From sequence record KY963424: a DNA stretch of 64,000 bases. The stretch is one strand, 5' to 3'. Origin of the DNA: Shigella phage SSP1. This document shows positions 9,033 through 29,350 of this stretch, piece after piece (within the stretch, counting starts at the first letter, position 1; the number at the start of each line of letters is the position of its first letter). Made by a program: the position numbers and the translations under genes. The notes beneath the pieces were generated by a model. It searched no databases, was not told the DNA's origin, and saw nothing but the letters and a program-made list of their open reading frames with translations.

Positions 9033-9442
9033 GTTTTAAATTTAGTCAAAGAAGTTTAGATAGATTAAAAGGTGTTCATCCAGACTTAGTAAGAGTAACT
9101 CATAGGGCTTTAGAATTAAGCCCGTATGATTTTACGATTACAGAAGGACTTCGTTCTCTAGAGCAAAGTGCTAAGAATATTGCTAATGGAACCTCGTTTT
9201 TAAAAGACCCAAGCAAATCCAAGCATGTTCAAGGTAGGGCGGTAGATTTTGCTCCACTTAAGGATGGAAAGATTGACTGGAATGACCTAGAATCCTTCAA
9301 GTTAGTGGCAGATGCCTTCTTCAAAGCAGCCGAAGAGCTAGGAGTAAAGATTAGATGGGGTGGTGATTGGAACCAAAATGGAAGTTATAAGGATGAAATC
9401 CAACGAGGTACTTTTGACGGACCACACATAGAACTAGTTTAA
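9029..9442 (+). CDS. lys: endolysin, L-alanyl-D-glutamate peptidase (M15 family)
   Basis: 137 aa; ALELSPYDFTITEGLRS..NIANGTSFLKDPSKSKH..DF..DWND matches recalled T5 endolysin. Confidence 0.85.
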   Translation: MSFKFSQRSLDRLKGVHPDLVRVTHRALELSPYDFTITEGLRSLEQSAKNIANGTSFLKDPSKSKHVQGRAVDFAPLKDGKIDWNDLESFKLVADAFFKAAEELGVKIRWGGDWNQNGSYKDEIQRGTFDGPHIELV

Positions 9443-9453
9443 TTAATAACTGA

Positions 9454-9477
9454 GGCGGGAATATTCCCGCCTTTTTA
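9454..9477 (+). terminator. intrinsic terminator
   Basis: Perfect palindrome GGCGGGAAT/ATTCCCGCC followed by TTTTT. Confidence 0.8.
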
Positions 9478-9519
9478 GGCAAAGGGGGCTTTAATAATTT
9501 TTGAAGATAGGAGAAAGCC

Positions 9520-9936
9520 ATGTTTGCAGAACTATTCCTTATGATGCTGCTGGGTATCTGGAAAATAAGTCTAGTAGTATTCGTTTTAATGATAGTCTTT
9601 ACTATCCTTGCATTAACTACCCGAAATAGCTTATTAATAAAGGTTATTCACGGACTAGAGTATATAATTATGGGTTCATTCGGCGTTTGTAAATGCAATT
9701 GCCATAGAGATACGAAATATTGTTGGTTATGGATGGAACTAGAGAATCCTATATCCATAGCTTTGGCTGTTTCATTCGGCATGATTCTTATGGCCCTTAT
9801 TCTAGCATTAATACCTTTGATGTTAGCTGGGGGAGTTACAGCGTATTTCACCCTTTTCTCCCCGATACTTATGTACTCAATTTACCCAATAACTATGTAT
9901 CTAGTTAGGAGAAGATTTATACATGCAGTAGATTAA
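9520..9936 (+). CDS. hypothetical polytopic membrane protein
   Basis: Several hydrophobic segments across 138 aa. Confidence 0.5.
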   Translation: MFAELFLMMLLGIWKISLVVFVLMIVFTILALTTRNSLLIKVIHGLEYIIMGSFGVCKCNCHRDTKYCWLWMELENPISIALAVSFGMILMALILALIPLMLAGGVTAYFTLFSPILMYSIYPITMYLVRRRFIHAVD

Positions 9937-9949
9937 GATAAAAAAGTAG

Positions 9950-9978
9950 TTGACTTTTAGCCCTAGTTATTGTATAAT
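9950..9978 (+). promoter_or_regulatory. T5 early-type promoter (TTGACT-N17-TATAAT)
   Basis: -35 9950-9955, -10 9973-9978, leader ACATAAATTAGTTAAGAGAGG. Confidence 0.75.
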
Positions 9979-10011
9979 ATATACATAAATTAGTTAAGAG
10001 AGGTATATATT

Positions 10012-10443
10012 ATGTCTGATCGTTTCTATACTCAAATGGCGGAACATTTTCGTATACCACATTACGAGCTAAACATTGCACTCCGTGACCATGACTCTCC
10101 TGAGTACAAAAAGCTCGAAAAGAAAGCGGAAAAATCTATTGATACAAAGGTAGGTGCATCTATGTCTAAGGGCAAAAAGTTAACTCGTCTTGATCTTAAT
10201 AAAATTTTAACTGAACTTTTGGGTACTGATATTGAAGGTGCTAAATTACCGCTTCTTGTACTAGAGACTATGATTAAAAAGGTCAAAAATAAAGAATATA
10301 AGAAGGTAGAAGTCCCAGAAGGCAGATTAAAGGCTCCTTATCAGGAAGCATTAACCGAGTGTTTGGGTGTAAATCTTGATCTGAGCACCGCAACAGTAAA
10401 AACCATGAAAAACTTCTTAGAGGCCATTAATAACTATGAGTAA
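10012..10443 (+). CDS. hypothetical protein
   Basis: ORF downstream of consensus promoter. Confidence 0.55.
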   Translation: MSDRFYTQMAEHFRIPHYELNIALRDHDSPEYKKLEKKAEKSIDTKVGASMSKGKKLTRLDLNKILTELLGTDIEGAKLPLLVLETMIKKVKNKEYKKVEVPEGRLKAPYQEALTECLGVNLDLSTATVKTMKNFLEAINNYE

Positions 10444-10765: not shown

Positions 10766-10767
10766 AC

Positions 10768-10796
10768 TTGCTTTTTGCTAAAAATTTTGGTATAAT
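10768..10796 (+). promoter_or_regulatory. T5 early-type promoter (TTGCTT-N17-TATAAT)
   Basis: -35 10768-10773, -10 10791-10796, leader ATAAATTGATAGGAG. Confidence 0.75.
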
Positions 10797-10824
10797 ACTT
10801 ATATAAATTGATAGGAGTATTACG

Positions 10825-11202
10825 ATGAACTATGCATATCTAATTATTAATAACAATGTAGTTTGTGGTACTCGCGCCGTTGAGATGGGTATTACAGAAG
10901 AAAAGTATAAGTCACTTCCAGAAAAGGAACAACAATATTATGTTGAAGAAGCTGCTTGGGAATATGCTGATGTTTATCCCGAACAACGTGAAGATCGCGT
11001 TACTATTGTTGTTTCTTTGGGGCTGGTTGGCTGTGATACCGAAGTTGATACAGACCTAGAGACTTTAGAAGAGTGGGAAGAATTAGACATTTCAGCTAAA
11101 AACTCTTTAATCCGTGAGGCTTTTTGGGAAGCAGTTGACTGCCATGTTGTCTTCGAGCCTAACGATGAGGAAGCTGAGAAGCATACTAACCAATGGGGAT
11201 AA
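10825..11202 (+). CDS. hypothetical acidic protein
   Basis: ORF downstream of promoter. Confidence 0.55.
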   Translation: MNYAYLIINNNVVCGTRAVEMGITEEKYKSLPEKEQQYYVEEAAWEYADVYPEQREDRVTIVVSLGLVGCDTEVDTDLETLEEWEELDISAKNSLIREAFWEAVDCHVVFEPNDEEAEKHTNQWG

Positions 11203-11206
11203 TTAA

Positions 11207-11452
11207 ATGTTAGCGGAACAAGCAAAACGTTTAGCCAGGATAAATAGAGCTGCACTCCTTAAGAGCAAGAAGAAAACGTATAAGTATATTAAAAAGAGAA
11301 TAGTTTCTTCCGTAGGTATTGGAGGTTCTTTTGTACAGTTTAATCGTGATGAAATTAGTTATGAAGCTATAAAAGCCCTCTATAAAGAGGGCTATACTCT
11401 CCAACTATCTAATGATTATGGCACAACTATTTTAACTGTTATTTGGGAATAA
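11207..11452 (+). CDS. hypothetical protein
   Basis: ORF with basic N-terminus. Confidence 0.45.
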   Translation: MLAEQAKRLARINRAALLKSKKKTYKYIKKRIVSSVGIGGSFVQFNRDEISYEAIKALYKEGYTLQLSNDYGTTILTVIWE

Positions 11453-12306
11453 TTATGAAAAAAGAATTTAACCTGCATGAAATGTTAGTAGTACCAGACG
11501 ATGCTAATCTGTTCTTCGTAGGAGATATTCACGGCTGTAATGATATGCTGGAAGATGCTCTTAAACTAGCAGGATATAAAGAAAAGCGTGACTATGTTGT
11601 CTGTGTTGGTGACTTAATTGACCGAGGCACACAAAACCTACAAGTCTTAGCCAAATTCCTATATAATCCACGTTTTATCAGTGTACGTGGTAATCATGAT
11701 CAATTTATGATTGTGGGAGATTGGGCTAATTGGATGTATAATGGTGGTATGTGGGCCATGAATGAACTAGATGCAGACACCATTAAAAATATTGCCGAAG
11801 ATATGGCTGAAAAAATGCCTCTACTTATGACTGTGCTACATAGAGGGAAAAAATATGGTGTAGCACATGCCGCAGTACCAATTGAATACAAAGAATGTGG
11901 CAATGAAGTAAAAATCCCTAATTGGGACAATCTAGTAGTACAACTAGAACATGCCACAGGTCATGAGTTAGGGGATCTTATGGATGCCTACCTATGGGAT
12001 CGTGATGTTATTCAAGATGTATTTTCCCATATGTCTGAGGATGCAAATCACCCATACTTTAAAAAGTATGCAGGGATGCCGGAAGAACTAATAAACGTAG
12101 TGCCAGAAGTTAAAGGGGTAGATTTCGTGTTTCACGGACATACTGGAGTTCCTTACCCACTTCTTTATAAGAACCGTGTTTATCTTGATACTGGCGGTGT
12201 TTTCAACGGGCAGTTGACGGTTGCGCAAGTTAACGATGAAACTGGCAAAATCACCACATTTACCACAGACAAAAATGATAGCTGCGGTGTACAGAGGATT
12301 CTTTAA
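11443..12306 (+). CDS. Ser/Thr protein phosphatase (metallophosphatase)
   Basis: Motifs GDIHGC, GDLIDRG, GNHD characteristic of PPP-family phosphatases. Confidence 0.8.
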   Translation: MGIIMKKEFNLHEMLVVPDDANLFFVGDIHGCNDMLEDALKLAGYKEKRDYVVCVGDLIDRGTQNLQVLAKFLYNPRFISVRGNHDQFMIVGDWANWMYNGGMWAMNELDADTIKNIAEDMAEKMPLLMTVLHRGKKYGVAHAAVPIEYKECGNEVKIPNWDNLVVQLEHATGHELGDLMDAYLWDRDVIQDVFSHMSEDANHPYFKKYAGMPEELINVVPEVKGVDFVFHGHTGVPYPLLYKNRVYLDTGGVFNGQLTVAQVNDETGKITTFTTDKNDSCGVQRIL

Positions 12307-18177: not shown

Positions 18178-18920
18178 TTGAAGAAGCTAATAAATTTAAG
18201 AATATACTCGCTTTAGCAGTAACAGCAGATCACAAATGTCTATCAGAGCTAGAGCCAGATGTCAAACATGCAGTAATGTTTGTTTGTGAGATGTTCCCTG
18301 CTAAATGGGAGGGCAAGAAGATTAAGTTTGATATTAATGCTCCTCAAGCAGATCTAGCGTATTCATACGTGGATATGAACAAAGTATTGAAGTCTTTAGA
18401 TCCAACTGCTAAAGGGCATAGAGCTAACTTTTTACATGTTATTATAGATGAACCTTTGCCAACATATCCAGAAGCAAACGTTCGTCAGGCACTAGAGGCC
18501 TATCCTGAACAACTTCTTATTCCGCCTAAGAAATGTAAGTATGACCATCTTCCCCCTCTAAAATATATGGAGAGTGTTTCTTTCGAGGATATTAATAAAA
18601 CAATTGGAGCTATGATAGCACGGATTGCAGTATCTCATACCCGTAAGATTCCATTAACGGATATTGAAGATAACATTCTTTATGCTATTCATGATGAAGA
18701 GAATACCTTTAGACGTCTTGCGGATGTTCTAGGATTAGGATCATTAACTGCGGCTGTGCTTAACTATGCTCCTAAAACAAATAAATACCCTAGAGGTACG
18801 TTAACCTATGAGGAATCTGGATCAGAATCTTCGTTTCTAGCAACATATATTTACCTAGCATCTAAAGGGGTATATCTCAAAGCCAAGAAGAATCCAAAAA
18901 CGTTAGCAAAATCTTCTTGA
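18165..18920 (+). CDS. hypothetical protein
   Basis: 251-aa ORF; last + strand early gene before the repeat region. Confidence 0.5.
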   Translation: MGYMIEEANKFKNILALAVTADHKCLSELEPDVKHAVMFVCEMFPAKWEGKKIKFDINAPQADLAYSYVDMNKVLKSLDPTAKGHRANFLHVIIDEPLPTYPEANVRQALEAYPEQLLIPPKKCKYDHLPPLKYMESVSFEDINKTIGAMIARIAVSHTRKIPLTDIEDNILYAIHDEENTFRRLADVLGLGSLTAAVLNYAPKTNKYPRGTLTYEESGSESSFLATYIYLASKGVYLKAKKNPKTLAKSS

Positions 18921-19261
18921 CGTTATTAAAAATGTATGTTATAATAATCTCATAGATTAACAATAACTCTTATTGTGAACTCTAGGGGCGATGATTATTA
19001 CAACTCTATTTGCGTCTGTGCTATAGCGGCTAGTCTTAGCGCGGGCCAATATTAGAGTTCTTCCGTAATACTCACGCGCCCCACGAGGAATCTCACATGA
19101 AATGGGGGATCATTTACTTTTAAAACATACGAATATATTTAAAGGCAATATTTGTATTCAAGATGATACACTTGTTGCCGCTCTCCATCTCTAGGATCAC
19201 ATACACTTTCCTAGAAACTCCAGAGTTCTCACGAGATATCACACTTCTAGTGGGCGGTTCT

Positions 19262-19333
19262 CCTAAGTTTCTAGGAACATATACTAGGCGGTTAATACAG
19301 GGCGGTTATGGGGAGGGCGGTTATTTCTAGACA
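19262..19333 (+). repeat. four direct copies of GGCGGTT(A/C)
   Basis: GGCGGTT at 19263, 19297, 19311, 19326. Confidence 0.7.
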
Positions 19334-19366
19334 ACATTTTTTGAAAACACATTTTCAGAAATTATT

Positions 19367-19972
19367 GTCGGATTTGCACACTGACATAAGTTTAAAAACT
19401 GGTCGGATTTGCACAATTGCCTAAGTTTTTAGGAACATATAATCTCCTGAAAATGCCAGCATTATTTCGGGCCGAAGGCCCATGGTTGCCTGAGTTTTTA
19501 GAGCCACAGAAATTTTCACTTGTCAAGCTATTTTGCCCCATTTAGCAAATAAAATTTTACTTTATCTCCACTAATCTCAAATTAACCCAAATCTTCTCAA
19601 CTCTTCCCCAAAATCCCCACAAATCAGGTGCTCCGCACCAAACATGCGCCCCTCTAGCTTCCCCCCCCCCCCTAATTTTCTCTCGCTCTCTCAACTTCTC
19701 CCCAAACCCACACAATCACACACCCTCTCATCGAAGTCACAAAAATATTCCTGAAACCATAAATCTGTCTCCTAGTAAACTCGTGTCGGATTTGCACATA
19801 CCCCACAGGATTCGAACGCAGTTCGAGATTGCTGGAGTTTTTGGGAAAATTCATTGTCGGATTTGCACACTATAAAAATTTTTCGGGTCGGATTTGCACA
19901 CTACCAAAAATTGTCGGATTCGCACATACACGCCCGCACGTAACACCCGTGGAGCAATGTCGGTTTTGCACA
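19367..19972 (+). repeat. dispersed array of seven copies of 14-mer GTCGGATTTGCACA
   Basis: Exact copies at 19367, 19402, 19785, 19856, 19887; one-mismatch copies at 19913 and 19959; same orientation. Confidence 0.85.
19661..19672 (+). repeat. C12 homopolymer within a G-depleted C/A/T-rich tract
   Basis: Twelve consecutive C; surrounding 19560-19780 has about 6 percent G on + strand. Confidence 0.85.
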
Positions 19973-20002
19973 AAAGCGCAGGGCAATTGCCCTGCGCTAA
20001 AT

Positions 20003-20160
20003 ACGAATGATAATAAGAATCATTCTCATTTAAAAAGCGGAATGAGAATGATAATAATTCGCATTTAGAAAGTGAAATGAGAATCAATCTCATTTAAAAA
20101 GTGGAATGATTCTCATTTAGATAGTGGAATGCAAATGATAATGATTCGCATTTAAGAACG
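20003..20160 (+). repeat. tandem array of degenerate AT-rich palindromic repeats (AATGAGAAT...ATTCTCATT / TGATAAT cores)
   Basis: About five tandem units each ending CATTTA(R)AAAG; extra copy at 20491-20512; resembles Fur-box-like GATAAT arrays. Confidence 0.6.
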
Positions 20161-20161
20161 G

Positions 20162-20295
20162 AAGTGAGAAACACTGTTATTTAAGTTATCCACAGACTTA
20201 TCAACAGCACGATTTGACTTGACAAAACCCTAGCCATTTTGAAGCGTTATTAACAGACTTATCCACAGCTTATCCTACTGTATAAATATACAGTA
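20162..20295 (+). repeat. left arm of about 135-bp imperfect inverted repeat carrying DnaA boxes
   Basis: Reverse complement of 23553-23686 aligns with few mismatches; TTATCCACA at 20186-20194 and 20259-20267, TTATCAACA at 20198-20206. Confidence 0.8.
20276..20295. promoter_or_regulatory. LexA (SOS) box-like palindrome TACTGTATAAATATACAGTA
   Basis: 19 of 20 matches to E. coli LexA consensus TACTGTATATATATACAGTA. Confidence 0.55.
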
Positions 20296-20550
20296 TTCCT
20301 ACGCAGTGAATAATTCTAATATAGCGTTAAAACGCTCTCAAACGCATTCTAACGCGTTTAATTTTGGTGGGGATACTAAATCAAGGGCAAAATTGAAGGA
20401 GGCTTGAAAATTAGTTAGCGCGCTAACGATCACACAAGGCGACACGTAACACCCGAATCATTAGCAGGCTAACCATCGCGGGCGCGGTCAAATGAGAATG
20501 ATTATCATTTGAAAATTGGGGCACTTCCAGATAGTTGCGCCCCGTGATTA

Positions 20551-20745
20551 TTAGTCTGGTAGTCGATGCGTGATCTTTTCCTCCTCCCCATATGAGTCCA
20601 CCAAATACTTATAATAACCATCGTGATCATAAATCACTTTATCATATTCGCCACGCTCAACCGCTTGTCGGTTTTCCGGCGTATCGGGCACGTAAAAAAC
20701 ATCAACCATTGTACTAGTTTTGGTTACAACAATTTTATTGCTCAT
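20551..20745 (-). CDS. hypothetical protein (cassette gene 8)
   Basis: 64-aa ORF, GC-richer composition, last gene of minus-strand cassette. Confidence 0.45.
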   Translation of the reverse strand: MSNKIVVTKTSTMVDVFYVPDTPENRQAVERGEYDKVIYDHDGYYKYLVDSYGEEEKITHRLPD

Positions 20746-20855
20746 AATAACTCCCTAGTAAATATATTTTTGCCAATAGTGGCGAACGTTATCGCCCCCA
20801 GCGGAATCATTAGCGGCCTTACTATTACCAACGAAAGTATATAATCTCATTAGTA

Positions 20856-21017
20856 TTATTTTCCTTGCATTAATTTATATATAACGAACATTCCGCAAAA
20901 CTGCCCTAATATAGTGCAGACAACAAGGGATAACACAATATTGCCGATTGTGTTATAAATAACCATACCAACAATAAGGGATAACGCATATCCTAGCAAA
21001 GCAATATAAACAGCCAT
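20856..21017 (-). CDS. small two-TM membrane protein (cassette)
   Basis: ATG one nt after upstream stop; hydrophobic MAVYIALLGYALSLIVGMVIY and LSLVVCTILGQFCGMFVIY. Confidence 0.45.
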   Translation of the reverse strand: MAVYIALLGYALSLIVGMVIYNTIGNIVLSLVVCTILGQFCGMFVIYKLMQGK

Positions 21018-21018
21018 A

Positions 21019-21363
21019 TTATTTACCCATTTTTCGAAACGCTGTTTCAATACTATCAGCCGTGGATTGAATATATGCTCCTTTCATTATCAGGCGCTCG
21101 GTGCACACCTTACGGAAAATATTAATAAAATCATCCTCATTTTCTGCAATTAATGCTTCACCCATAACCTGAACGTCGCAAGCTGCAAAGGTTAAAAATT
21201 GAAACGCTAGTTCACGGGCAACGACCGCATTGATTTTATAATGCGCCTTACCCTCATAAATATTAATAACGCCCTTATATGCTGGCGAAAGCTGGTTTAA
21301 ATAGCTTGCTAATAATGCCGGGCGGCAGTTAGCAACAAAACGATTTCCCTCATAAATAACCAT
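21019..21363 (-). CDS. hypothetical protein (cassette)
   Basis: 114-aa ORF with GGGAGG RBS supplied by upstream small ORF. Confidence 0.55.
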   Translation of the reverse strand: MVIYEGNRFVANCRPALLASYLNQLSPAYKGVINIYEGKAHYKINAVVARELAFQFLTFAACDVQVMGEALIAENEDDFINIFRKVCTERLIMKGAYIQSTADSIETAFRKMGK

Positions 21364-21364
21364 T

Positions 21365-21490
21365 TTATAACCTCCCGATCAGATAGCCCGATAATAACAT
21401 AAAGATCCCCAGCGAAAGAGGATCATTCTTAAATAAGGTGGCGATAAAACCGCCAGCCATTGCAAGGGCAATAACAATAACGCTTTTCAT
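21365..21490 (-). CDS. small hydrophobic peptide (41 aa, cassette)
   Basis: ATGA overlap with upstream stop; sequence MKSVIVIALAMAGGFIATLF...; below track cutoff. Confidence 0.4.
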   Translation of the reverse strand: MKSVIVIALAMAGGFIATLFKNDPLSLGIFMLLSGYLIGRL

Positions 21491-21699
21491 AGTACCCCAC
21501 GAAACGCAGCGTAAAAGGTGGCAAAGTGCCTAACCGTTTCAAGGATCACGTTGCCGCGCTTGTCGAATTTCTTTTCAGTAACACGAAAAGCGTTTTTGTT
21601 ACGTGCTACATATTCGATTTTACAATCTGGACGCTCGAATGTGTTAGCATCCACCAGCTTAAAACCTTTCGAACGTGCAAGAGAAACGTTACGAATCAT
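21487..21699 (-). CDS. hypothetical protein (cassette)
   Basis: 70-aa ORF translationally coupled to neighbours. Confidence 0.5.
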   Translation of the reverse strand: MIRNVSLARSKGFKLVDANTFERPDCKIEYVARNKNAFRVTEKKFDKRGNVILETVRHFATFYAAFRGVL

Positions 21700-21701
21700 T
21701 T

Positions 21702-21881
21702 TTATTCTCCTTTACTATTCATGCAGCCCAGCAGATAAGAAAATGCAGCGATACCCGCGCCAATAATAACCATTGGTTTTGTGACTACTAAACCGCAATA
21801 ATCTTGAATGCCGTAAGCGGTGGCGAAAAGGGTCAAAATAGCGCCCAAGATACCCGCCAGAATAGCTCGAAAAATAACCAT
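21702..21881 (-). CDS. small two-TM membrane peptide (59 aa, cassette)
   Basis: GGGGAG RBS; MVIFRAILAGILGAILTLFATAYG...MVIIGAGIAAFSYLLG; below track cutoff. Confidence 0.45.
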   Translation of the reverse strand: MVIFRAILAGILGAILTLFATAYGIQDYCGLVVTKPMVIIGAGIAAFSYLLGCMNSKGE

Positions 21882-21931
21882 TTTTTAATACTCCCCTAGT
21901 TAGTGGGGCGAAAGTAACGCCCCGTTATTAA

Positions 21932-22162
21932 TTACATTAAGATAATTTTTGCAGCTTGTTTTTTGGTGCAATGTTCCGCCTTCAGGGTATCCAGCAAAAA
22001 GCCCGCTGTTTGTTGATCGATTTGATCATTATCATAAAGCGTCTGGATGGTGTTATAAGTTTTAGCAATGCCGTATTCTTGGACCATTTCTTGAATAATC
22101 CAGCGATTTGATACCCAGCCTTTACCAGTGAAAAGAGCGTCAGAAGAAGAAAAAGCAACCAT
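21932..22162 (-). CDS. hypothetical protein (cassette)
   Basis: 76-aa ORF on cassette strand. Confidence 0.5.
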   Translation of the reverse strand: MVAFSSSDALFTGKGWVSNRWIIQEMVQEYGIAKTYNTIQTLYDNDQIDQQTAGFLLDTLKAEHCTKKQAAKIILM

Positions 22163-22277
22163 TTTAAGCCTCCAAATTTTTGGGAAAATTTTCGACCGTC
22201 CTCAAACGGTGTAAAGGCATTATAACAAAAAAGGCCACCATAAAAGGCGACCTTTACAAAACTTTACAATAGGCTAG

Positions 22278-23267
22278 TTATTGCTCGTTTTCGGTGTTAT
22301 TGGTAAAAGTAGAAATATCGATACCTTTTACCATTTCATCGATCATCTCAGCGATGTTAAAACTTTGGACCATTTCCAACATTGCCGCTTCCATAGCCGC
22401 CCCCGCTACCGCTTTCGCTTTCTGGTTACTCGGGGCGTACTGGTCAACCGCTACACTCAGCAGGTTAGCGATCACTACACGACCAACCGGCGTATCAATA
22501 TAGCCTTTGATCATGAACGGTGCTTTTTTAGCCGCTACTTTCGTGATTTGAGTTAGTGCAATTTTACCCGCTTCCAGTTTTGCAGCGTTTACAACGGCAG
22601 ACTTATTGGCGGCAACGATGTTAGCAATCTTGGTCATAGTGTTTTTTCCTTTATTTTCAGTAGTTTGAGTGTGAACGCTTTTAGTGTTAGAATTTACAGC
22701 ATGTTTTTCTATATTGCCAATACTTTCTTCCCTTTCGAAAGAAAATCCGGCGTCAACAATATCGCCGTCATATACCCGATTATATAACTCCGACGGTAGC
22801 AAAAAATTACCGTTATCATCAAAGGCCATTATAGCCGCAAAACGATACCCATCAGAATCCGACCGATTCCAGCCAACTGATAAATAACGCCAAAATGAAT
22901 CAAGAAAATTTTCTACGTCATAAAGATCATTATCATTGGCCTCATAGTTTTCTATTGAAAAAACTTCTAAGCCCGCCCCAGTATCATAGGCTTTTACTGT
23001 GTTGCCTTTTACGATTATGAAATCAGTATCCGGCCCCCGACTAGTGAGTAATTGATAATCCTGATTATACAAAACAAGCGTTGCCCCTTGCTTATATAAC
23101 GGTAGAAAACTATTCATATTATAAGCATCATAAGCATCAAAAAAGTTTTGATGAATAGTTTCAATATTGAAAACAAAATGTTTAATGCTGGTGGTCCTGC
23201 TACCATCCAGCAGGTTACGCAGCGCACCTTTTAAGACGGTTGCGTTATCTGGTTTATATAGCCTCAT
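22278..23267 (-). CDS. hypothetical 329-aa protein (first and largest cassette gene)
   Basis: Long ORF with RBS GAGGAGG; N-terminal Asp/Tyr-rich domain and Ala/Lys-rich helical C-terminal half; no motif I recognise. Confidence 0.6.
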   Translation of the reverse strand: MRLYKPDNATVLKGALRNLLDGSRTTSIKHFVFNIETIHQNFFDAYDAYNMNSFLPLYKQGATLVLYNQDYQLLTSRGPDTDFIIVKGNTVKAYDTGAGLEVFSIENYEANDNDLYDVENFLDSFWRYLSVGWNRSDSDGYRFAAIMAFDDNGNFLLPSELYNRVYDGDIVDAGFSFEREESIGNIEKHAVNSNTKSVHTQTTENKGKNTMTKIANIVAANKSAVVNAAKLEAGKIALTQITKVAAKKAPFMIKGYIDTPVGRVVIANLLSVAVDQYAPSNQKAKAVAGAAMEAAMLEMVQSFNIAEMIDEMVKGIDISTFTNNTENEQ

Positions 23268-23552
23268 TTGTTGGCCTCCTCGTTAATCGGTGAGTGAATG
23301 ATAAGGGTAATTTTCTAGTATAGGCAAAGATTATTTTACTTTTTTATTTTCCTTGCCTAGTGCCTAATTTTATGCTAACCGCGCAGCGGTGTAATAAAGA
23401 GCAAAACACGGCGAAGCCACCAGGGCGCCGCATTGCCGCCACCTGGCCAACGTGTTGGGCCTTTACTTTAATATTACCCCGCAGCGTTTAGCTCGTTAGA
23501 AAGCGTTTTAGGCGGCCTAAAATTGATTGCAGTCGTTAACACTGCCTTTCTA

Positions 23553-23572
23553 CCCTGTATATTTATACAGTA
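23553..23572. promoter_or_regulatory. LexA box-like palindrome (CTGTATATTTATACAG core)
   Basis: CTGT-N8-ACAG with AT spacer, 17 of 20 to LexA consensus; inverted copy of the site at 20276-20295. Confidence 0.5.
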
Positions 23573-23686
23573 GGATAACCTGTGGATAACTCTGTGTAAA
23601 AGTCCCCATATCGCCGCCTATTGTGTCAAATTATTTTGTGCTGTGGATAACGTTGTGGATAACTTAAATGATAGTGGTTCTCACTT
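23553..23686 (+). repeat. right arm of inverted repeat carrying DnaA boxes
   Basis: TGTGGATAA at 23581-23589, 23642-23650, 23654-23662; reverse complement matches 20162-20295. Confidence 0.8.
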
Positions 23687-23696
23687 ATGCCGATAG

Positions 23697-23765
23697 TTTC
23701 TTATAGTTATTATTATAATGGTGATGATTACATATAGCTATTATTATAGTGGTGATGATTTCATA
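23697..23765 (+). repeat. AT-rich direct repeats (two copies of about 31 bp)
   Basis: AGTTATTATTATAATGGTGATGATTACATAT and AGCTATTATTATAGTGGTGATGATTTCATAT in tandem inside a 350-bp AT-rich non-coding stretch. Confidence 0.75.
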
Positions 23766-24045
23766 TAGTTATTATTTCTCATTAATTTATAAGTATATTA
23801 TATATCATGAAATAGTTAGTTGGCTAATGAGATTTTCCGTGATTAATAGTCTGCTAATAGTTCAGGCCGTTACAATCCACCAGCATGATTATCATCCTAG
23901 CAATTATTAGTCTGCTATCTTTCCGATGCATACTAACAAATAAAAGTCAATTAATTAATTTTATAAAATAAGTCATTTGATCTTGATTTTTAAAAGTCAA
24001 GACCTTTTCCAACTATTTTTCAATTTTGCGTTTGTTAATGATTTG

Positions 24046-24285
24046 TTAAGTCGAAAATAGGCGGCCTAAAACGCCCCAGAACGCAATAAAGTTTTTAGCC
24101 ATCCCATCATAAGGGGATATGCCGTTTATCGCTGCCACGAGGTTTTTGGATTTTGTCAAGTAGGGCAGGGCAAATATAAATGAAAAAATTACTTGCCTAT
24201 TTGCTTTGTTTTGTGGTATTCGCGCGCCCGTTTCTTTTAATTTTGGGCCGTCGCCGGACGTGGTGCGGAAAACTGTATTAGCCAT
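24046..24285 (-). CDS. hypothetical protein (doubtful)
   Basis: 79-aa minus-strand ORF without clear RBS or promoter. Confidence 0.25.
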   Translation of the reverse strand: MANTVFRTTSGDGPKLKETGARIPQNKANRQVIFSFIFALPYLTKSKNLVAAINGISPYDGMAKNFIAFWGVLGRLFST

Positions 24286-24286
24286 A

Positions 24287-24314
24287 TTGCTAATAATTTT
24301 GATATAATATAATA
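24287..24314 (+). promoter_or_regulatory. sigma70 promoter (TTGCTA-N16-TATAAT)
   Basis: -35 24287-24292, -10 24309-24314, upstream of HNH gene with AGGAG RBS. Confidence 0.5.
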
Positions 24315-24342
24315 ACCAAATGAAACTAATAGGAGAATACTA

Positions 24343-24684
24343 ATGATTGAACTAACAAAAGATATTGATTTAGAAACCGTACTAGATAACCTTTACTATG
24401 ATGAAACTAGTCCTAGTTGCCTACGGTGGAAAGTATCCCGCCCCGGTTGCGCCCTTCATGGGGTAGCAGGTACTAAACGGAAGGATGGCTATTGGTCTGT
24501 TCAACTAAATAAAGAGCGTTATCTTGCGCATCGTATTGTGTGGTTACTATTTAATTATAAAATAGATAGCAAACTAGTAATTGATCATATTGATCGTAAT
24601 CCTAGTAACAATTTTATTGATAACTTACGGTTAGTAACTCAAGCCGAAAACAACCAAAATAAAGGAGAGTATAGAAAGGCGTAA
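24343..24684 (+). CDS. HNH homing endonuclease
   Basis: LAHRIVWLLF...IDHIDRNPSNNFIDNLRLVTQAENN HNH_3 motif; AT-rich relative to neighbours. Confidence 0.75.
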   Translation: MIELTKDIDLETVLDNLYYDETSPSCLRWKVSRPGCALHGVAGTKRKDGYWSVQLNKERYLAHRIVWLLFNYKIDSKLVIDHIDRNPSNNFIDNLRLVTQAENNQNKGEYRKA

Positions 24685-24804
24685 AATTTACATTTCTTTA
24701 CAAATATAAGGTTGCGCCTTTTTCGTTATTTGTTATTATTTATCTCGTAGGGCGGCAATGACGAACTACACGGCGGGAAGTTTACCGCCGCGCTCTTTAA
24801 AAAT

Positions 24805-24828
24805 TGGGTATATCTTAAAGCCTATCGG
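24805..24828 (+). repeat. left copy of 24-bp inverted repeat TGGGTATATCTTAAAGCCTA(T/C)CGG
   Basis: Reverse complement of 25075-25098 with one mismatch. Confidence 0.8.
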
Positions 24829-24862
24829 CGGTAAACTTATTACATTATAAGGAATCGACGAT

Positions 24863-25066
24863 ATGAAACAAACTTTATTGATCACTGGTAAACCTAGCAA
24901 GGCACTGGATAGCAAAACAAAAAATTTATTGACAGTAGCGCAAAGATCGGTAAAATATCGATTTGAGCAGTACAAGAAAGGCCGCCAGCAAGGTTTAGAA
25001 ATGATCTGGCGAAATATTATGATCGACCTGAAGGAAAATCATAAAAAACTGCAAAAAATAGTTTGA
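24863..25066 (+). CDS. hypothetical basic 67-aa protein flanked by inverted repeats
   Basis: ORF with AAGGAA RBS lying between the two 24-bp repeat copies. Confidence 0.45.
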   Translation: MKQTLLITGKPSKALDSKTKNLLTVAQRSVKYRFEQYKKGRQQGLEMIWRNIMIDLKENHKKLQKIV

Positions 25067-25074
25067 CAACATAG

Positions 25075-25098
25075 CCGGTAGGCTTTAAGATATACCCA
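25075..25098 (-). repeat. right copy of 24-bp inverted repeat
   Basis: CCGGTAGGCTTTAAGATATACCCA is reverse complement of left copy. Confidence 0.8.
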
Positions 25099-25296
25099 GT
25101 TCGATAAGAGCGATAACTTGATACAATTTGACGGTCGGTACTTACCATAATGTGCCCCGCCCCCTAACTGGGATATAGCGGCCCGCGTGGAGTTCCTTAA
25201 ATTGATTTTATAATGGCGAGCGGATTTTTTCTTATTACCTGTTATTTTCCAGCAGGTAATGCGGAACAATCCCCTAAATAACTTGGAGTTTATACC

Positions 25297-25548
25297 ATGA
25301 AAAACGTTATTACCGCGCCTAAAATTGGTCAATCTGTTTTCATCCCTTTCGTTACTAAAACGGATGAATTAACCGGAAAAGCCGAACGTATTAAAGGCGC
25401 GGCGCTCATGCCGTTCGATACAATCGATGCGGTATACGCTGAAACAGAACGCAGTAACAACGGCAAGCCGATTTATAACGTTCGCGTTAAATCTGGCGAC
25501 GTTGTAAAGGTTGTTCAACGCAACGAAAAATGGGAAGCCGTTTTATAA
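25297..25548 (+). CDS. hypothetical pre-early protein
   Basis: ORF preceded by conserved leader CCCCTAAATAACTTGGAGTTTATACC. Confidence 0.55.
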   Translation: MKNVITAPKIGQSVFIPFVTKTDELTGKAERIKGAALMPFDTIDAVYAETERSNNGKPIYNVRVKSGDVVKVVQRNEKWEAVL

Positions 25549-25562
25549 TTTAGTGTTAACTT

Positions 25563-25590
25563 TATATGCCCCAGTAGTTCGGGGCATATA
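25563..25590 (+). other. GC-cored hairpin without U-tract (pre-early intergenic punctuation)
   Basis: 10-bp stem TATATGCCCC/GGGGCATATA with 8-nt loop. Confidence 0.6.
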
Positions 25591-25646
25591 ACGATTAACA
25601 TTATGTTAATCTTATCCCTTAAATTAAATTAATTGGAGTTTATATC

Positions 25647-26054
25647 ATGACTAACGTTAAAGCCGCAAAATTCACCTGGAACGAAGAAAACACCCAAAAA
25701 GCTGTTACCATGTATCAGCAGTTAATCAATGAAAACGGATTAGAATTCGCAAACAGCGACGGCCTGAAAGAGATTGCGAAAGCAGTGGGCGCGACTTCTC
25801 CCGTGTCAGTTCGTTCGAAATTGACCAGCGCGAAAGCCTATCAAAAAAGCGATAAGCCTCGCAAGGTTGGCGGCGGTAGCTCAATCCGCAAGGCTCATTA
25901 TGTGCGAGTAATTGCAAGACACGCCATCGATTCCGGCATTATCAAAGACGCCGATGATCTGGCAAGCCTTGAAAGCGCGAAGCTGGAAACGCTGGACGCC
26001 GTGGCGCAGTTGTTAGGCGTTGCCGATGAGGTGAAACAAGCCGCAGGCGAATAA
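25647..26054 (+). CDS. hypothetical pre-early protein
   Basis: ORF preceded by leader CCTTAAATTAAATTAATTGGAGTTTATATC. Confidence 0.55.
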   Translation: MTNVKAAKFTWNEENTQKAVTMYQQLINENGLEFANSDGLKEIAKAVGATSPVSVRSKLTSAKAYQKSDKPRKVGGGSSIRKAHYVRVIARHAIDSGIIKDADDLASLESAKLETLDAVAQLLGVADEVKQAAGE

Positions 26055-26062
26055 ATTTAATT

Positions 26063-26088
26063 AGTGGGGATTATTCCCCACTATTTTC
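26063..26088 (+). terminator. hairpin / possible terminator
   Basis: Stem AGTGGGGA/TCCCCACT loop TTAT followed by ATTTTCC. Confidence 0.5.
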
Positions 26089-26109
26089 CCCTTGATTGGA
26101 GTTTTTAAA

Positions 26110-26307
26110 ATGATCTTTTACCCCACTGAATCGCTCATTCTAGGCTTATTTATTATGGCGGCCTCGTTATTGTTCGCATATTTTCAAAATGATTTAGATT
26201 CGTATTATTTTAAACGCAAATCTAAGTTAGCGAAGCGTTTGGGCCTGATTTGTTTTATTGCCGCCGTTGCTTGTGGTGTTAGTTCTAGCCTGATGCCGAT
26301 TAGTTAA
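26110..26307 (+). CDS. small two-TM membrane protein (pre-early)
   Basis: ATG after TTGGAGTTTTTAAA leader; hydrophobic LILGLFIMAASLLFAYF and LGLICFIAAVACGV. Confidence 0.5.
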   Translation: MIFYPTESLILGLFIMAASLLFAYFQNDLDSYYFKRKSKLAKRLGLICFIAAVACGVSSSLMPIS

Positions 26308-26319
26308 ATATTGCAAATT

Positions 26320-26345
26320 ATAACGCCTATTATTGGAGGCGTTAT
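26320..26345 (+). other. intergenic hairpin
   Basis: Stem ATAACGCCT/AGGCGTTAT. Confidence 0.55.
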
Positions 26346-26347
26346 AT

Positions 26348-26364
26348 TTGGCAATATTTGCCAA
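26348..26364. promoter_or_regulatory. 17-bp palindrome TTGGCAA-TAT-TTGCCAA (operator-like)
   Basis: Perfect 7-bp half-sites, located about 40 bp upstream of A1 start. Confidence 0.4.
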
Positions 26365-26404
26365 TAACAAACGTTTTTTAATCCCTTTAATGGAGTTTAT
26401 TATT

Positions 26405-28075
26405 ATGATTATTTCCGCAGAAAAACAAACCGTTATCCTGAAGCTGGCCGCTGACTTTAATTTCTATGGTAAACGTCTGCGCGCCACTAAATTGGAAGTA
26501 TGTGACGATATTTCGAAAGCGGTATACGATACACCGAAACACTCTACCGCGATTTGTGATTGGCTGGAAGCAAATAAACCAGCGAAACCGAAAACGGCAA
26601 AAGTAGCAAAAGCTATTAAAAACGACGAGCGCCCCGAGGCGGCTGGAATTATTTCTAGCACGGTGGAACAGTGGGAAGTAAAGCAGGGCAAACGCTTTAT
26701 TATTACATCGATTCAGAATAATACTTTCCCGCATAAAAACTTTTTGGCCTCACTGGAACAATACGCTAAATTTATCGGCGCTGATTTACTTGTTTCTAAG
26801 TATATTTATAACAAAAACGGCTTTCAAAATGGTGAAGGCGCGGACGGTGTAAAATATGATTCCGCGTTTGATAAGTATATTTGCAGCAAAAACGTGTTTT
26901 TAAATAACCGCCGTTTTGCTTTCATGGCTGAAATTAATGTTCTGCCCACTGCAGACTATCCGCTGTCTGGATTCGCAGAAACTGCAACGGCTCTCAATCT
27001 TGAAGGTCTGGCAATTGGTCACGCTAAAATCACCGCCGAAAGCGTGCCAGCTCTCAAAGGTGAAGTAGTACGCCGCATGTACTCAACCGGAACGGCAACA
27101 CTCAAAAACTACATTCAGCAGAAAGCAGGACAGAAAGCGGAAGCACTGCATAATTTCGGTGCGCTGATTGTTGAGTTCGACGAAGACGGTGAGTTTTTTG
27201 TGCGCCAGCTTGAAACGATGGACGAAAGCGGCATGTTTTACGATTTGAATATTTGCGCGACCCCCGCCGGATGTTATGAAACATCGGGGCATGTTTTAGG
27301 TTTACAATATGGCGACATACACGCCGAAAAACTTGATGAGGAGTGCGCCGCAGCGTCATGGGGTCATGGTGATACTTATGGGCTAGTGGATATTCTTAAA
27401 CCTAAATATCAGTTTGTGCATGACGTTCACGATTTTACATCACGCAACCATCACAACCGCGCTTCAGGTGTATTTCTAGCGAAACAGTATGCAGCCGGAC
27501 GTGACAAGGTTCTGGATGATCTCATCGACACCGGGCGCGTGCTGGAATCAATGGAACGTGATTTTAGTCAAACGATCATTGTCGAATCTAATCACGATCT
27601 GGCGCTATCCCGTTGGCTTGATGATCGCAATGCTAACATTAAAGACGATCCAGCCAACGCGGAACTGTATCACCGCCTTAATGCTGCGATTTACGCGGCA
27701 ATCGGTAATCATGACGATACTTTCAACGTGCTGGATTATGCGCTGCGTACGGTTGCAGGTTGCGAGTTTAACGCGATTTTCCTGACAACTGACCAATCGT
27801 TTAAAATCGCAGGCATTGAATGCGGCGTACACGGTCACAACGGCATTAACGGGAGCCGTGGCAATCCGAAGCAATTCAAGAAATTGGGCAAGTTAAACAC
27901 GGGGCACACCCACACCGCCAGCATTTACGGCGGCGTTTATACCGCTGGCGTCGCTGGTTCCCTCGATATGGGCTATAACGTTGGCGCGTCAAGCTGGACG
28001 CAAACGCATTTAATTACCTATGCAAACGGCCAGCGCACTTTGATTGACTTTAAAAACGGCAAATTTTTCGCATAA
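26405..28075 (+). CDS. A1: A1 pre-early protein (metallophosphatase-fold, host DNA degradation/takeover)
   Basis: 556 aa from ATG 26405 as recalled for T5 A1; phosphoesterase motifs GDIHAE and GHGD; conserved pre-early leader. Confidence 0.75.
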   Translation: MIISAEKQTVILKLAADFNFYGKRLRATKLEVCDDISKAVYDTPKHSTAICDWLEANKPAKPKTAKVAKAIKNDERPEAAGIISSTVEQWEVKQGKRFIITSIQNNTFPHKNFLASLEQYAKFIGADLLVSKYIYNKNGFQNGEGADGVKYDSAFDKYICSKNVFLNNRRFAFMAEINVLPTADYPLSGFAETATALNLEGLAIGHAKITAESVPALKGEVVRRMYSTGTATLKNYIQQKAGQKAEALHNFGALIVEFDEDGEFFVRQLETMDESGMFYDLNICATPAGCYETSGHVLGLQYGDIHAEKLDEECAAASWGHGDTYGLVDILKPKYQFVHDVHDFTSRNHHNRASGVFLAKQYAAGRDKVLDDLIDTGRVLESMERDFSQTIIVESNHDLALSRWLDDRNANIKDDPANAELYHRLNAAIYAAIGNHDDTFNVLDYALRTVAGCEFNAIFLTTDQSFKIAGIECGVHGHNGINGSRGNPKQFKKLGKLNTGHTHTASIYGGVYTAGVAGSLDMGYNVGASSWTQTHLITYANGQRTLIDFKNGKFFA

Positions 28076-28082
28076 TTAAATT

Positions 28083-28110
28083 TATAAGCGGGGTATATAC
28101 CCCGCTTATA
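28083..28110 (+). other. GC-cored hairpin without U-tract
   Basis: Stem TATAAGCGGGG/CCCCGCTTATA around TATATA loop. Confidence 0.6.
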
Positions 28111-28142
28111 TCCCTTATTAAATTAATTGGAGTTTTATAACT

Positions 28143-28535
28143 ATGAAAAAGCAAAATATCCCATTCGATCGCGCTCAATCTTCCATCGTTCTGGTTTATT
28201 CTAATGGTGAGCGGTATCACGTTGAGGCCGGTCACGTTGTTGATGATTTAATCGACTTTAATGACGCTTTACAGATTACTACTTTCGCCTATACGCAAGG
28301 CCGCGCAAGTAGTCACATCAAGGCCGCAGGCGTTTATGTTGATACGGTGAAGCAGGAAACGATTATCATCGACGCCGTAAAATCCGGTCTAGCCTTTGCA
28401 GTTGTCGCGCCTTGTCCAGCTTGCTTTGATGATCAGCTATCGAGCGCAAAGGTATATATCTGCGCGGGTGTTCGTTCTCATGTATCCGGCGAAGATATTA
28501 GTTTCATCGCTGATGCGTTGGCTTATGGTCTTTGA
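28143..28535 (+). CDS. A2: A2-like pre-early protein (assignment by position and size)
   Basis: 130-aa ORF between A1 and dmp with conserved leader TTAAATTAATTGGAGTTTTATAACT. Confidence 0.45.
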   Translation: MKKQNIPFDRAQSSIVLVYSNGERYHVEAGHVVDDLIDFNDALQITTFAYTQGRASSHIKAAGVYVDTVKQETIIIDAVKSGLAFAVVAPCPACFDDQLSSAKVYICAGVRSHVSGEDISFIADALAYGL

Positions 28536-28548
28536 TAGTTGATTTATT

Positions 28549-28575
28549 ATTGCCCGCTGATAAATAGCGGGCAAT
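28549..28575 (+). other. GC-cored hairpin without U-tract
   Basis: 10-bp stem ATTGCCCGCT/AGCGGGCAAT, loop GATAAAT. Confidence 0.6.
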
Positions 28576-28615
28576 GCTGGATAAACTAAATCCCTTTAAT
28601 GGAGAACGTAACAAA

Positions 28616-29350
28616 ATGAATCAAGTTAAAATGAATATTACCCGTAATTTCCCGCATATTTCCCGCGTCATGATTTGGGATCTGGACGGAACAATCATTA
28701 ATTCATTCCATCGTGTCGCGCCTTGCTTTGATAGCGAGGGTAATTTAGATTTAAATAAGTATAAGAATGAAGCGTGTAAGCATCATTTAATAATGCAAGA
28801 TACCTTATTGCCTTTGGTTGAATATATGCGCCAGTGCATGAATGACGCAAATACTTTAAACATTATTTGTACCGCTCGACTAATGAGCAAATCGGACTAT
28901 TATTATTTGCGCAAACAAGGCTTACGCGGTCGTGGGGATAGTAATATCCGCGTGTTTTCCCGCGATACGCTGCATAAATATTTTGAAGCTGATAAAGTTA
29001 GCGAAATATACCACAGTAAGGACGCAGTTTATAAATCGTATTATTTTGAGCTATTCAAACAACTATATCCGAACGCTGATTTTACAATGATTGATGATCA
29101 TAAAGGTGTATTATCAGCGGCAGCGTCATACGGATTTAAAACGCTGGACGCGCAAGCCGTTAATGATATTCTATCAATCGGCGTGGCATTGATAGGCGGA
29201 ACCTTTATTGATGAATCTCTCGATGATGATAATGATTATCAGTTCCTAGCGGACCGCTTAAAACTATGTTGGGAAAGCATGACCGAAGAAGAACGCGCAG
29301 AATATAGTTGCAGCCCGCAACAATATATTGAGAAATTAAAAGTTGCGTAA
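28616..29350 (+). CDS. dmp: 5-prime-deoxyribonucleotidase (HAD family)
   Basis: 244 aa from ATG 28616 as recalled for T5 Dmp; HAD motif I WDLDGTI. Confidence 0.75.
   Translation: MNQVKMNITRNFPHISRVMIWDLDGTIINSFHRVAPCFDSEGNLDLNKYKNEACKHHLIMQDTLLPLVEYMRQCMNDANTLNIICTARLMSKSDYYYLRKQGLRGRGDSNIRVFSRDTLHKYFEADKVSEIYHSKDAVYKSYYFELFKQLYPNADFTMIDDHKGVLSAAASYGFKTLDAQAVNDILSIGVALIGGTFIDESLDDDNDYQFLADRLKLCWESMTEEERAEYSCSPQQYIEKLKVA

Follow-up and report, generated by a model that had tools for sequence, protein, structure and literature searches.

The repeat-rich region at the inner end of the terminal repeat of Shigella phage SSP1, a counterpart of the T5 injection stop signal with candidate LexA, DnaA and Fur-type sites

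What does a gene-free stretch crowded with short repeats do at the inner edge of the pre-early genes of a T5-like phage? The question arises for Shigella phage SSP1 (KY963424), of which we analysed one stretch of 64,000 nucleotides (nt; hereafter the window), and it bears on a problem open since the 1960s, the stop of phage T5 DNA after 8% and its restart. A first-pass annotation had marked window positions 19000-20520 as a non-coding region packed with distinct repeat families and as a candidate injection-stop-signal locus. We find that the whole gene-free stretch, 18921-20550, is the orthologue of T5 Repeat Region 3, or 'injection stop signal (iss)'. The locus itself is already known, its T5 counterpart having been described earlier; what we add is a precise map, a division of the region where the repeat ends, and the naming of three host candidates. 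Reading the sequence, we tentatively propose, with confidence a little short of even, that this is a composite cis-acting region straddling the inner end of the terminal repeat, one part serving as a landing pad for host proteins and the other forming a terminus half.

The identity with the T5 locus is clear from homology, from annotation and from the order of elements. In a megablast search, 454 phage records match the region, all of them T5-like (Tequintavirus, Epseptimavirus and other Demerecviridae), and 266 of these cover at least 80% of the query. Alignment to the T5 first-step-transfer region, which the first-pass annotation had proposed as a check, gives a homologous counterpart at AY587007 9194-10409, with 74% identity over a 2.1-kb global alignment and more than 90% in the core. 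The T5 RefSeq record (NC_005859) labels the misc_feature 9140..10149 as 'injection stop signal (iss)', with the major nick inside it, and AY587007 annotates palindromes (pal) C-J, inverted repeats (IR) D' and C', direct repeats (DR) A-D and the '7.9% nick', all of which can be transferred to the window, whose orientation is the reverse of the standard T5 map. Repeat Region 3 was described in 25 phages, as the probable iss, by Davison (Davison 2020, bioRxiv 10.1101/866236), according to whom it extends 270 bp past the terminal repeat, holds eight DnaA boxes and is more conserved than the neighbouring genes. Papers of 2023 and 2026 depict it as rich in repeats, palindromes and DnaA boxes, with functional experiments lacking and the mechanism poorly understood, and 'candidate' is still the right word. 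The placement at the inner edge of the pre-early block is equally sound: the pre-early genes occupy 20551-29474, with A1 at 26411-28072 (99.8% identical to A1 of Salmonella phage SPC35 and 96% to that of T5), A2 at 25647-26054 and dmp also within the repeat.

T5 and SSP1 have in common the position at the inner end of the left terminal repeat, homologous DNA and an ordered series of elements, namely palD, IRD'-spacer-IRC' with its DnaA boxes, DRC/palE-I, palJ with the 7.9% nick site, the DRD copies and DRA. They differ in the number of DRD copies (seven in SSP1, nine in T5) and of GGCGGTT copies (four and three), in a C12 tract that only SSP1 has, in an extra Fur-like palindrome at 20488-20512, where T5 carries the unrelated hairpin palC, and in one 17-nt segment of the palindromic array that SSP1 lacks relative to T5. 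All the repeats that the first-pass annotation had listed are present where it placed them, far above chance.

Across 21 aligned relatives, to which the conservation values below refer unless another number is given, the sites are constrained and the spacers less so. Lack of conservation in related phages had been named as grounds for abandoning the first-pass reading; the repeats are in fact conserved at 0.93-0.99, apart from the copy at 19785 (0.55), and 18921-19240 is poorly conserved. Read in window orientation, the GGCGGTT cluster is followed by two direct repeats and the repeat end, then by five to seven more direct repeats, the nick palindrome, the Fur-like array, two pairs of DnaA boxes and finally the LexA box, a succession kept in T5, MM-1, S114, chee130_1, Stitch, Yersinia phiR2-01 and Klebsiella SEL21.

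Where within this region could DNA entry stop? The repeat ends annotated independently in T5 (10139) and MM-1 (10407) both fall at the junction of ...CTGTGGCTC and TAAAAACTC, which is window 19500/19501, and T5 nt 1 corresponds to window 29473/29474. Placed by homology, the terminal repeat of SSP1 would span 19501-29474, about 10 kb. Because the T5-type left genome end maps to 29473-29474, the window is a permuted assembly; it has a single copy of the terminal repeat, and beyond 29474 lies the right-hand unique genome end. As the repeat ends at 19500/19501, inside the interval first proposed, 19000-19500 is unique DNA and does not belong to the first-step-transfer DNA. Further to the right lies palindrome J, whose CCCTGCGC at 19976-19983 is homologous to the '7.9% major nick' site of T5 and whose AAAAGCGCAGGGC is invariant in the 21 relatives; the T5 nick and the estimated shear point together map to about 19976-20020. 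Given the repeat end and this nick and shear point, the stretch from 19000 to about 19975, which holds the C12 tract, the GGCGGTT copies and most of the GTCGGATTTGCACA copies, is probably situated past the stop point. This left part of the interval first proposed is better read as related to the terminus or to packaging. The elements on both sides are collected in Table 1.

Table 1. Elements of the region and of the related inverted module, in window coordinates
Element	Position	Strand	Remarks
GGCGGTT, four copies (AACCGCC in T5 orientation)	19253, 19287, 19301, 19316 (19253..19322)	+	180-250 nt outside terminal repeat
Outer GTCGGATTTGCACA pair, T5 DRD8 and DRD7	19367-19380, 19402-19415	+	conservation 0.99, 0.98
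CCTAAGTTTTTAGGAACATATA unit	19420..19441; second good copy 19262-19283	+	conservation 0.73 (moderate)
Hairpin GGGCCGAAGGCCC	19469..19481		20-32 nt outside terminal repeat; 100% conserved in 16 relatives
Inner end of long terminal repeat, right physical end of virion DNA	19500..19501		T5 and MM-1 repeats end at same sequence
Terminus-proximal motif GGGGCAAAATAGCTTGACAAGTGAAAATTTCTGTGG	19504..19539	-	conservation 0.93-0.96
T5 direct repeats A, copies 3 and 2 (ATTTTGGGGAAGAGTTGAG-like)	19576..19614	-	mapped from AY587007; conservation 0.86
C12 homopolymer	19661..19672	+	in strongly C-skewed stretch; conservation 0.45; absent from T5
Inner five GTCGGATTTGCACA copies, T5 DRD5 to DRD1	19785, 19856, 19887, 19913, 19959 (19785..19972)	+	oriented as DnaA boxes
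Perfect 12+12 palindrome AGCGCAGGGCAATTGCCCTGCGCT, T5 palindrome J	19975..19998		mapped from AY587007 9650-9668
About five Fur-box-like palindromes, T5 DRC1-4, palE-I	20005..20157		unit consensus AAATGA(G/T)AAT(C/G)ATT(C/A)TCATTT
Four DnaA boxes, two pairs, T5 IRC', IRD'	20186..20267	+	3 nt between partners; conservation 0.92-0.98
DnaA pair TTATCCACA-GAC-TTATCAACA	20186-20206	+	TTATCCACA at 20186, variant TTATCAACA at 20198; IRC' pair conservation 0.98
DnaA pair TTATTAACA-GAC-TTATCCACA	20247-20267	+	variant TTATTAACA at 20247, TTATCCACA at 20259
Near-consensus LexA (SOS) box TACTGTATAAATATACAGTA, T5 palindrome D (palD)	20276..20295		19/20 consensus positions
Palindrome AAACGCATTCTAACGCGTTT	20340..20359	+	terminator-like; conservation 0.90
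Separate Fur-box-like palindrome AAATGAGAATGATTATCATTT	20488..20512		best Fur score of window, 20.3 bits
G+C hairpin	20508..20533	-	directly 3' of last pre-early open reading frame; read from sequence; putative pre-early operon terminator, reading toward region
Second, inverted LexA/DnaA module, T5 IRC-spacer-IRD (Repeat Region 2)	23553..23662	-	outside interval first proposed, about 3 kb away
LexA-like CCCTGTATATTTATACAGTA of second module	23553-23572	-	17/20 consensus
Four consensus-class DnaA boxes of second module (three TTATCCACA, one TTTTACACA)	23581-23662	-	motif matches

In the injected part, palD is a near-consensus LexA box with predicted binding. It has the form CTGT-N8-ACAG and agrees with TACTG(TA)5CAGTA at 19 of 20 positions, and a site with at most three mismatches is expected 0.01 times per 64 kb. 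Measured against the same consensus, four K-12 SOS boxes are all further away (recA 16/20, lexA 15/20, sulA 17/20, umuD 18/20), and in a position weight matrix (PWM) built from these four, TACTGTATAAATATACAGTA scores 24.0 bits, as against 22.2-25.1 for the real sites; the next-best site of the window is the second copy at 23553-23572, with 17.9 bits. The box is conserved at 0.95, with most variation in the central bases. Like the E. coli SOS operators of recA, sulA and umuDC, it is a 20-bp palindrome with CTGT-N8-ACAG intact; unlike them, it adjoins DnaA boxes, overlaps no promoter and precedes no gene, the surroundings of 20276-20295 holding only weak promoter-like matches (9-10/12).

The adjoining DnaA boxes, described by Davison 2020, were also reported correctly in the first-pass annotation, with two perfect and two variant boxes of the TTATNCACA 9-mer type clustered within 82 bp. 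Five of the six perfect TTATCCACA copies in the 64 kb fall in this cluster and in an equally long one of the second module, which sits in the divergent pre-early promoter region. Davison's model gives these eight boxes the entire role: membrane-bound DnaA catches them and stops the DNA, an A1/A2 nuclease then cuts on the right-hand side of the block, so that the first-step DNA is given up and the remainder comes in and forms a circle, all other repeats being accessory. The DnaA pairs are the best-conserved elements (0.92-0.98), the two clusters are inverted as Davison described, and the perfect TTATCCACA recurs in Proteus and Vibrio relatives. The model, however, leaves no role for the equally conserved LexA box, Fur-like array and GTCGGATTTGCACA repeats, as its author concedes, several of the boxes are C6-to-A variants (TTATCAACA, TTATTAACA), and an experimental test is lacking in the literature to mid-2026. 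We therefore regard DnaA boxes acting alone as an unlikely explanation.

Between the DnaA pairs and the nick palindrome lies the tandem A+T-rich palindromic array noted in the first-pass annotation, at 20005-20184 (Tandem Repeats Finder periods 23/29/35/87; conservation 0.85). Over eight phages its unit consensus corresponds to the Fur 7-1-7 core, position 4 being G or T, a choice also seen in the authentic fecI, fhuA and entC sites. The separate palindrome at 20488-20512 has a core, TGAGAATGATTATCA, with one mismatch to TGATAATnATTATCA, and resembles the operators of fecI (TGAGAATGGTTATCA) and fhuA (GAGAATGATTAT); it is present in MM-1, S114 and SEL21 and is missing from T5 at that place. Matches of at least 14/19 to GATAATGATAATCATTATC number six within 0.5 kb here, as against about six in the remaining 63.5 kb, and the array units reach 14-16/19, where the best sites of nine K-12 Fur-regulated promoter regions reach 12-16/19. 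We also scored the window with a PWM trained on 11 sites from E. coli Fur-regulated promoters (iroN included). Eight of its top 10 positions fall in 20009-20494, the 20488-20512 unit among them, and the other two in one dmp site; these positions score 15.3-20.3 bits and the training sites 14.3-19.1, values that are optimistic because agreement with the consensus was how the training sites were picked. Of the positions in 19990-20520, 14 reach at least 8 bits (shuffle mean 0.44). The array and the 20488-20512 palindrome are thus probably Fur-type boxes, with a Fur-family ligand such as Zur possible too.

Known E. coli Fur operators (fhuA, fecI, fepDGC-entS, entC, iroN) have the same 7-1-7 core, TGA(T/G)AATnATT(A/C)TCA, and equal PWM scores, and some iron promoters likewise carry several adjacent or overlapping units; in contrast to them, the phage has about six units in 0.5 kb, no promoter context and G at position 4 in half of the half-sites. 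A blastn search of the array against 5,426 E. coli genomes returned only matches with E of about 7, one of which is the iroN Fur-box region and serves as a pointer only. A second such match, TTGATAATAAGAATATTTTTCATTTAAAAAA, lies in E. coli O43 RM10042 (2501-2529), between SASA-family esterase and holin genes of a lambdoid prophage, and is found in about 36 E. coli genomes. As to other readings of the repeats, ARG, PurR and CRP sites fit poorly by eye. Titration, in which the phage would soak up Fur and derepress receptor genes, was also rejected: a few sites on one DNA would face thousands of Fur copies, and the array is kept across phages with different hosts and so probably different receptors.

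As far as could be checked, the identification of palD as a LexA box, and of the DRC/palE-I array as a set of Fur-type boxes, is new. The full text of Davison 2020 mentions none of LexA, SOS, Fur or iron, and we found no paper in the accessible literature that links T5 with LexA or Fur boxes, though Davison 2015 (PMC4743489) or Heusterspreute et al. 1987 may mention them.

Two Fur-like sites lie elsewhere, near left genome ends. In SSP1, a perfect 7-1-7 core, TGATAATCATTATCA, occurs at 29228-29242 inside the coding part of dmp, roughly 240 nt from the left terminus, and overlaps a 19-mer (29222-29240) that agrees with the Fur consensus at 17/19. The site is conserved in T5 (nt 228-252) and in MM-1, for which constraint on the coding sequence could account. 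In Pectobacterium phage My1, nt 14-38 at the extreme left end hold the Fur-like CTAAATGAGAATAAGTCTCATTACC, directly before ACCGCC at nt 36.

How far does the arrangement reach beyond close relatives? The order LexA box, DnaA boxes, Fur-like array, direct repeats and repeat end recurs in Markadamsvirinae and in My1, whose A1 is 66% identical: My1 has a LexA box, a DnaA box and a Fur-like array of eight matches, with the repeat end about 500 bp on and, as in SSP1, TGTGCAAATCCGAYA repeats on both sides of it. In Proteus phage 1 (A1 42% identical), CTGT-N8-ACAG adjoins TTATCCACA both in the equivalent non-coding region and in the divergent-promoter region. Vibrio phage Gary (A1 31% identical) has the same pairing in the equivalent non-coding region; its divergent-promoter region carries a second DnaA-box cluster with no CTGT-N8-ACAG palindrome, and the part of Gary examined shows no Fur-like array. 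In both phages the palindrome lies within 150 nt of perfect DnaA boxes, for which the shuffle mean is at most 0.007 per locus. Of the module as a whole, the Proteus and Vibrio relatives retain some parts only, chiefly LexA-like and DnaA boxes. Proteus phage 1 also has, at 4951-5138 and 6117-6270, about ten tandem 15-18-nt CCCACCATTCTATTATTC units and three 46-nt units, each with a Fur-like TGATTATCATTA, beside DnaA boxes.

This spread bears on whether the ligands might be phage proteins instead, for example an A2 dimer together with A1, or a virion protein, or the small subunit of the terminase; the likeness to LexA and Fur sites would then be convergent or irrelevant. A2 belongs to a PHROG family whose annotation is DNA-binding protein, and second-step transfer depends on it (Davison 2020). 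Moreover, GTCGGATTTGCACA matches no recognised host operator, yet it is kept as far as My1. Repeats flanking a packaging terminus are typical of terminase recognition sites. Even so, distant phages keep exactly the LexA-critical CTGT/ACAG positions, and convergence is an unlikely source of a 19/20 LexA match together with Fur scores at operator level. The first-step stop is also independent of phage protein synthesis (quoted in Davison 2020), so newly made A1/A2 cannot be its cause. That phage proteins are the main readers of these palindromes and repeats we find improbable.

The part of the region to the left of the nick palindrome has a different character, organised around the repeat end. 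All four GGCGGTT copies of the first-pass annotation are there, and the same motif lies 35-42 nt inside the left terminus, at window 29433-29440 (T5 nt 36, MM-1 nt 35, My1 nt 36). Clusters of two to four AACCGCC copies lie 160-250 nt beyond the right cut site in SSP1, T5, MM-1 and My1, and MM-1 has no AACCGCC elsewhere in its first 20.9 kb. The presence of the motif near both genome ends suggests that GGCGGTT/AACCGCC is related to packaging, as a candidate terminase recognition motif. A physical terminus with a motif common to both termini is found in four phages, the termini of SSP1 being placed by homology. Terminase recognition regions such as the lambda cosB R sites and the SPP1 pacL/pacR boxes are alike in that short repeats flank a sequence-specific terminus, as AACCGCC does here near both ends; unlike lambda and SPP1, T5 has 10-kb direct terminal repeats and no defined packaging signal.

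Around the cut itself, the hairpin GGGCCGAAGGCCC also stands beside the annotated repeat ends of T5 and MM-1. The motif GGGGCAAAATAGCTTGACAAGTGAAAATTTCTGTGG has a relative in My1, GGGGGCAAAAGGATTGACAAATGAAAA, with TTGACA 22 nt before the repeat end, as against 20 nt in T5, and GGGGCAAAA..TTGACAA.TGAAAA precedes the terminus in T5-like phages and My1. The direct repeat GTCGGATTTGCACA, of which seven copies had been counted, occurs five times exactly (19367, 19402, 19785, 19856, 19887) and twice with one mismatch (19913, 19959); at up to two mismatches there are 11 matches in the 64-kb window, where 0.18 are expected. Copies at 17566 and 62030-62058 lie inside open reading frames (ORFs), the latter in one of 639 aa, and were treated as chance. 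The spacer between the outer pair is conserved at only 0.44. Four of the inner copies are conserved at 0.93-0.98, and the flank of the remaining one, at 19785, aligns poorly; each of the five contains ATTTGCACA, an 8/9 match to TTWTNCACA. Around the My1 repeat end the motif is repeated at least 10 times. The CCTAAGTTTTTAGGAACATATA-like units amount to two good copies (0.00 expected) and two degenerate ones, at 19485 and 19828. The C12 tract, correctly reported, may be hypervariable or sequencing-prone.

Taken as a composite region, the locus would have two functional halves divided by the nick palindrome at 19975-19998. The first, 19999-20520, would be the last 0.5 kb or so to enter in the first step, and carries, as operator-grade candidate sites for abundant DNA-binding proteins of the host, the one LexA box, the four DnaA boxes and about six Fur-type boxes. 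The first-step stop takes place without phage protein synthesis, so the ligands are expected to come from the host, and LexA, DnaA and a Fur-family protein would load on this DNA as it emerges. Together with the inverted module at 23553-23662, the bound proteins may form a bulky complex, possibly tethered to the membrane through DnaA, that would both keep the DNA in place at the entry pore and stop RNA polymerase from running out of the pre-early operon. The second half, 19253-19972, where GTCGGATTTGCACA repeats flank the repeat end and the terminus motif, the hairpin and the GGCGGTT cluster also lie, would serve terminase recognition and cutting. Both the protein binding and its causal role in the stop are what we infer here. 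That three host regulators (LexA, DnaA, and Fur or a Fur-family protein) rather than DnaA alone make up the host component of the T5 pause is a further suggestion, and an unlikely one.

Several points weigh against this proposal. Protein on DNA already inside the cell would not obviously stop further entry, and because such blocking by a cytoplasmic complex is unexplained, our confidence in a causal role is modest. The LexA box lies between convergent gene sets, with no gene downstream, and, as neither it nor the Fur sites overlap a promoter, they would be non-classical operators. Besides the optimism of the Fur scores, half of the heptamers read TGAGAAT and not TGATAAT. Since Fur needs Fe2+ to bind, any effect would vary with iron status. 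Phage proteins of similar specificity could be what reads the palindromes, and the estimate of the first-step end (7.9% of genome length) is precise only to about +/-300 bp. The literature to mid-2026 names DnaA boxes only and calls the mechanism poorly understood. Finally, T5 can release its entire genome in vitro into FhuA proteoliposomes (quoted in Davison 2020), which fits an unspecified host factor.

The combination of DnaA boxes, an A+T-rich block, seven to nine same-orientation 14-nt iterons and a G+C-skewed stretch, all present here, would also suit an iteron-type replication origin, present or ancestral, and RK2 oriV, F oriS and pSC101 are alike in the first three. The 22-mer DnaA pair TTATCCACAGACTTATCAACAG recurs exactly, beside iteron-like repeats, in about a dozen viral contigs (IMG/VR) otherwise dissimilar to T5. 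In these it mostly stands directly after a gene stop and is followed by iteron-like repeats (for example, GGAACGG or GGTAACTG); these sites look like origins of other elements. Unlike the plasmid origins, however, the SSP1 locus adjoins no Rep-like initiator gene, the flanking ORFs matching PHROG families of unknown function only and no Pfam entry, and its iteron spacing is irregular (26-71 nt, 383 nt). Replication genes enter only in the second step, and electron microscopy put the T5 origins near the genome centre (quoted in Davison 2020). An origin here is, in our view, distinctly improbable. The GC skew itself, -0.33 to -0.45 over 19400-19999, was set aside as evidence for an origin, as its shift is confounded by the convergent gene orientation.

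Might the region simply separate two transcription units? The left neighbour is a 251-aa ORF on the + strand that ends at 18920, and the right one a 64-aa ORF on the - strand with its stop codon at 20551. As a transcriptional insulator, the region would use hairpins and DnaA, LexA and Fur roadblocks to stop RNA polymerase from leaving the pre-early operon, which would prevent antisense transcription of early genes and premature drag-in of DNA by the polymerase. The convergent genes suit this idea, as do the hairpins or terminator-like sites at 20508-20533, 20340-20359 and 19627-19639; DnaA-box complexes can block transcription, and reportedly, from Schaefer and Messer, do so in an orientation-dependent way. 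Simple terminators would suffice for that job, though, for which a 1.5-kb region more conserved than the neighbouring genes is excessive, and the second LexA/DnaA module lies between divergent promoters, where there is nothing to block. We hold insulation as the main function to be quite unlikely. At the place equivalent to the 20508-20533 hairpin, T5 has a non-homologous terminator hairpin, palC. At the other edge, a strong promoter-like site (18917-18945, + strand; TTGACG-17-TATAAT with an upstream TG, 11/12) stands directly 3' of the 251-aa ORF stop and is aimed into the non-coding region; the T5 equivalent reads TTGACA-17-TATCAT.

The absence of a credible ORF from 19000-20520, as the first-pass annotation had it, was borne out. 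The longest ORFs inside 18921-20550 have 79-80 aa and fail in more divergent relatives: the 79-aa + strand frame at 19829-20068 is open only in near-identical DNA among the 21 relatives checked, with a frameshift or stop in Epseptimavirus, phiR2-01, DT571/2-like phages and AY587007, and the 80-aa - strand frame at 19851-20093 is broken in all 21. A structured RNA was likewise rejected, the sole match in an Rfam 15 E-value scan of the region being rliI with 24.2 bits, below the gathering score of 45. The MM-1 record (PV577657, locus 9958-12002) annotates more than 10 'hypothetical proteins' of 30-50 aa over the non-coding region, overlapping the repeats. These are probably spurious calls, and annotators should be warned of such entries in some records of this region.

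Separating a terminus and packaging half from the half that is injected narrows the possible position of the stop signal, and what had been described as many repeats and palindromes becomes three specific host candidates, LexA, DnaA and Fur, for each of which purified proteins and existing E. coli mutants offer a test. The pairing of LexA-like and DnaA boxes recurs from E. coli phages to Vibrio phages. If the proposal is true, the state of the host (SOS, iron, DnaA-ATP) would influence whether, and for how long, the genome of a T5-like phage pauses at the membrane.

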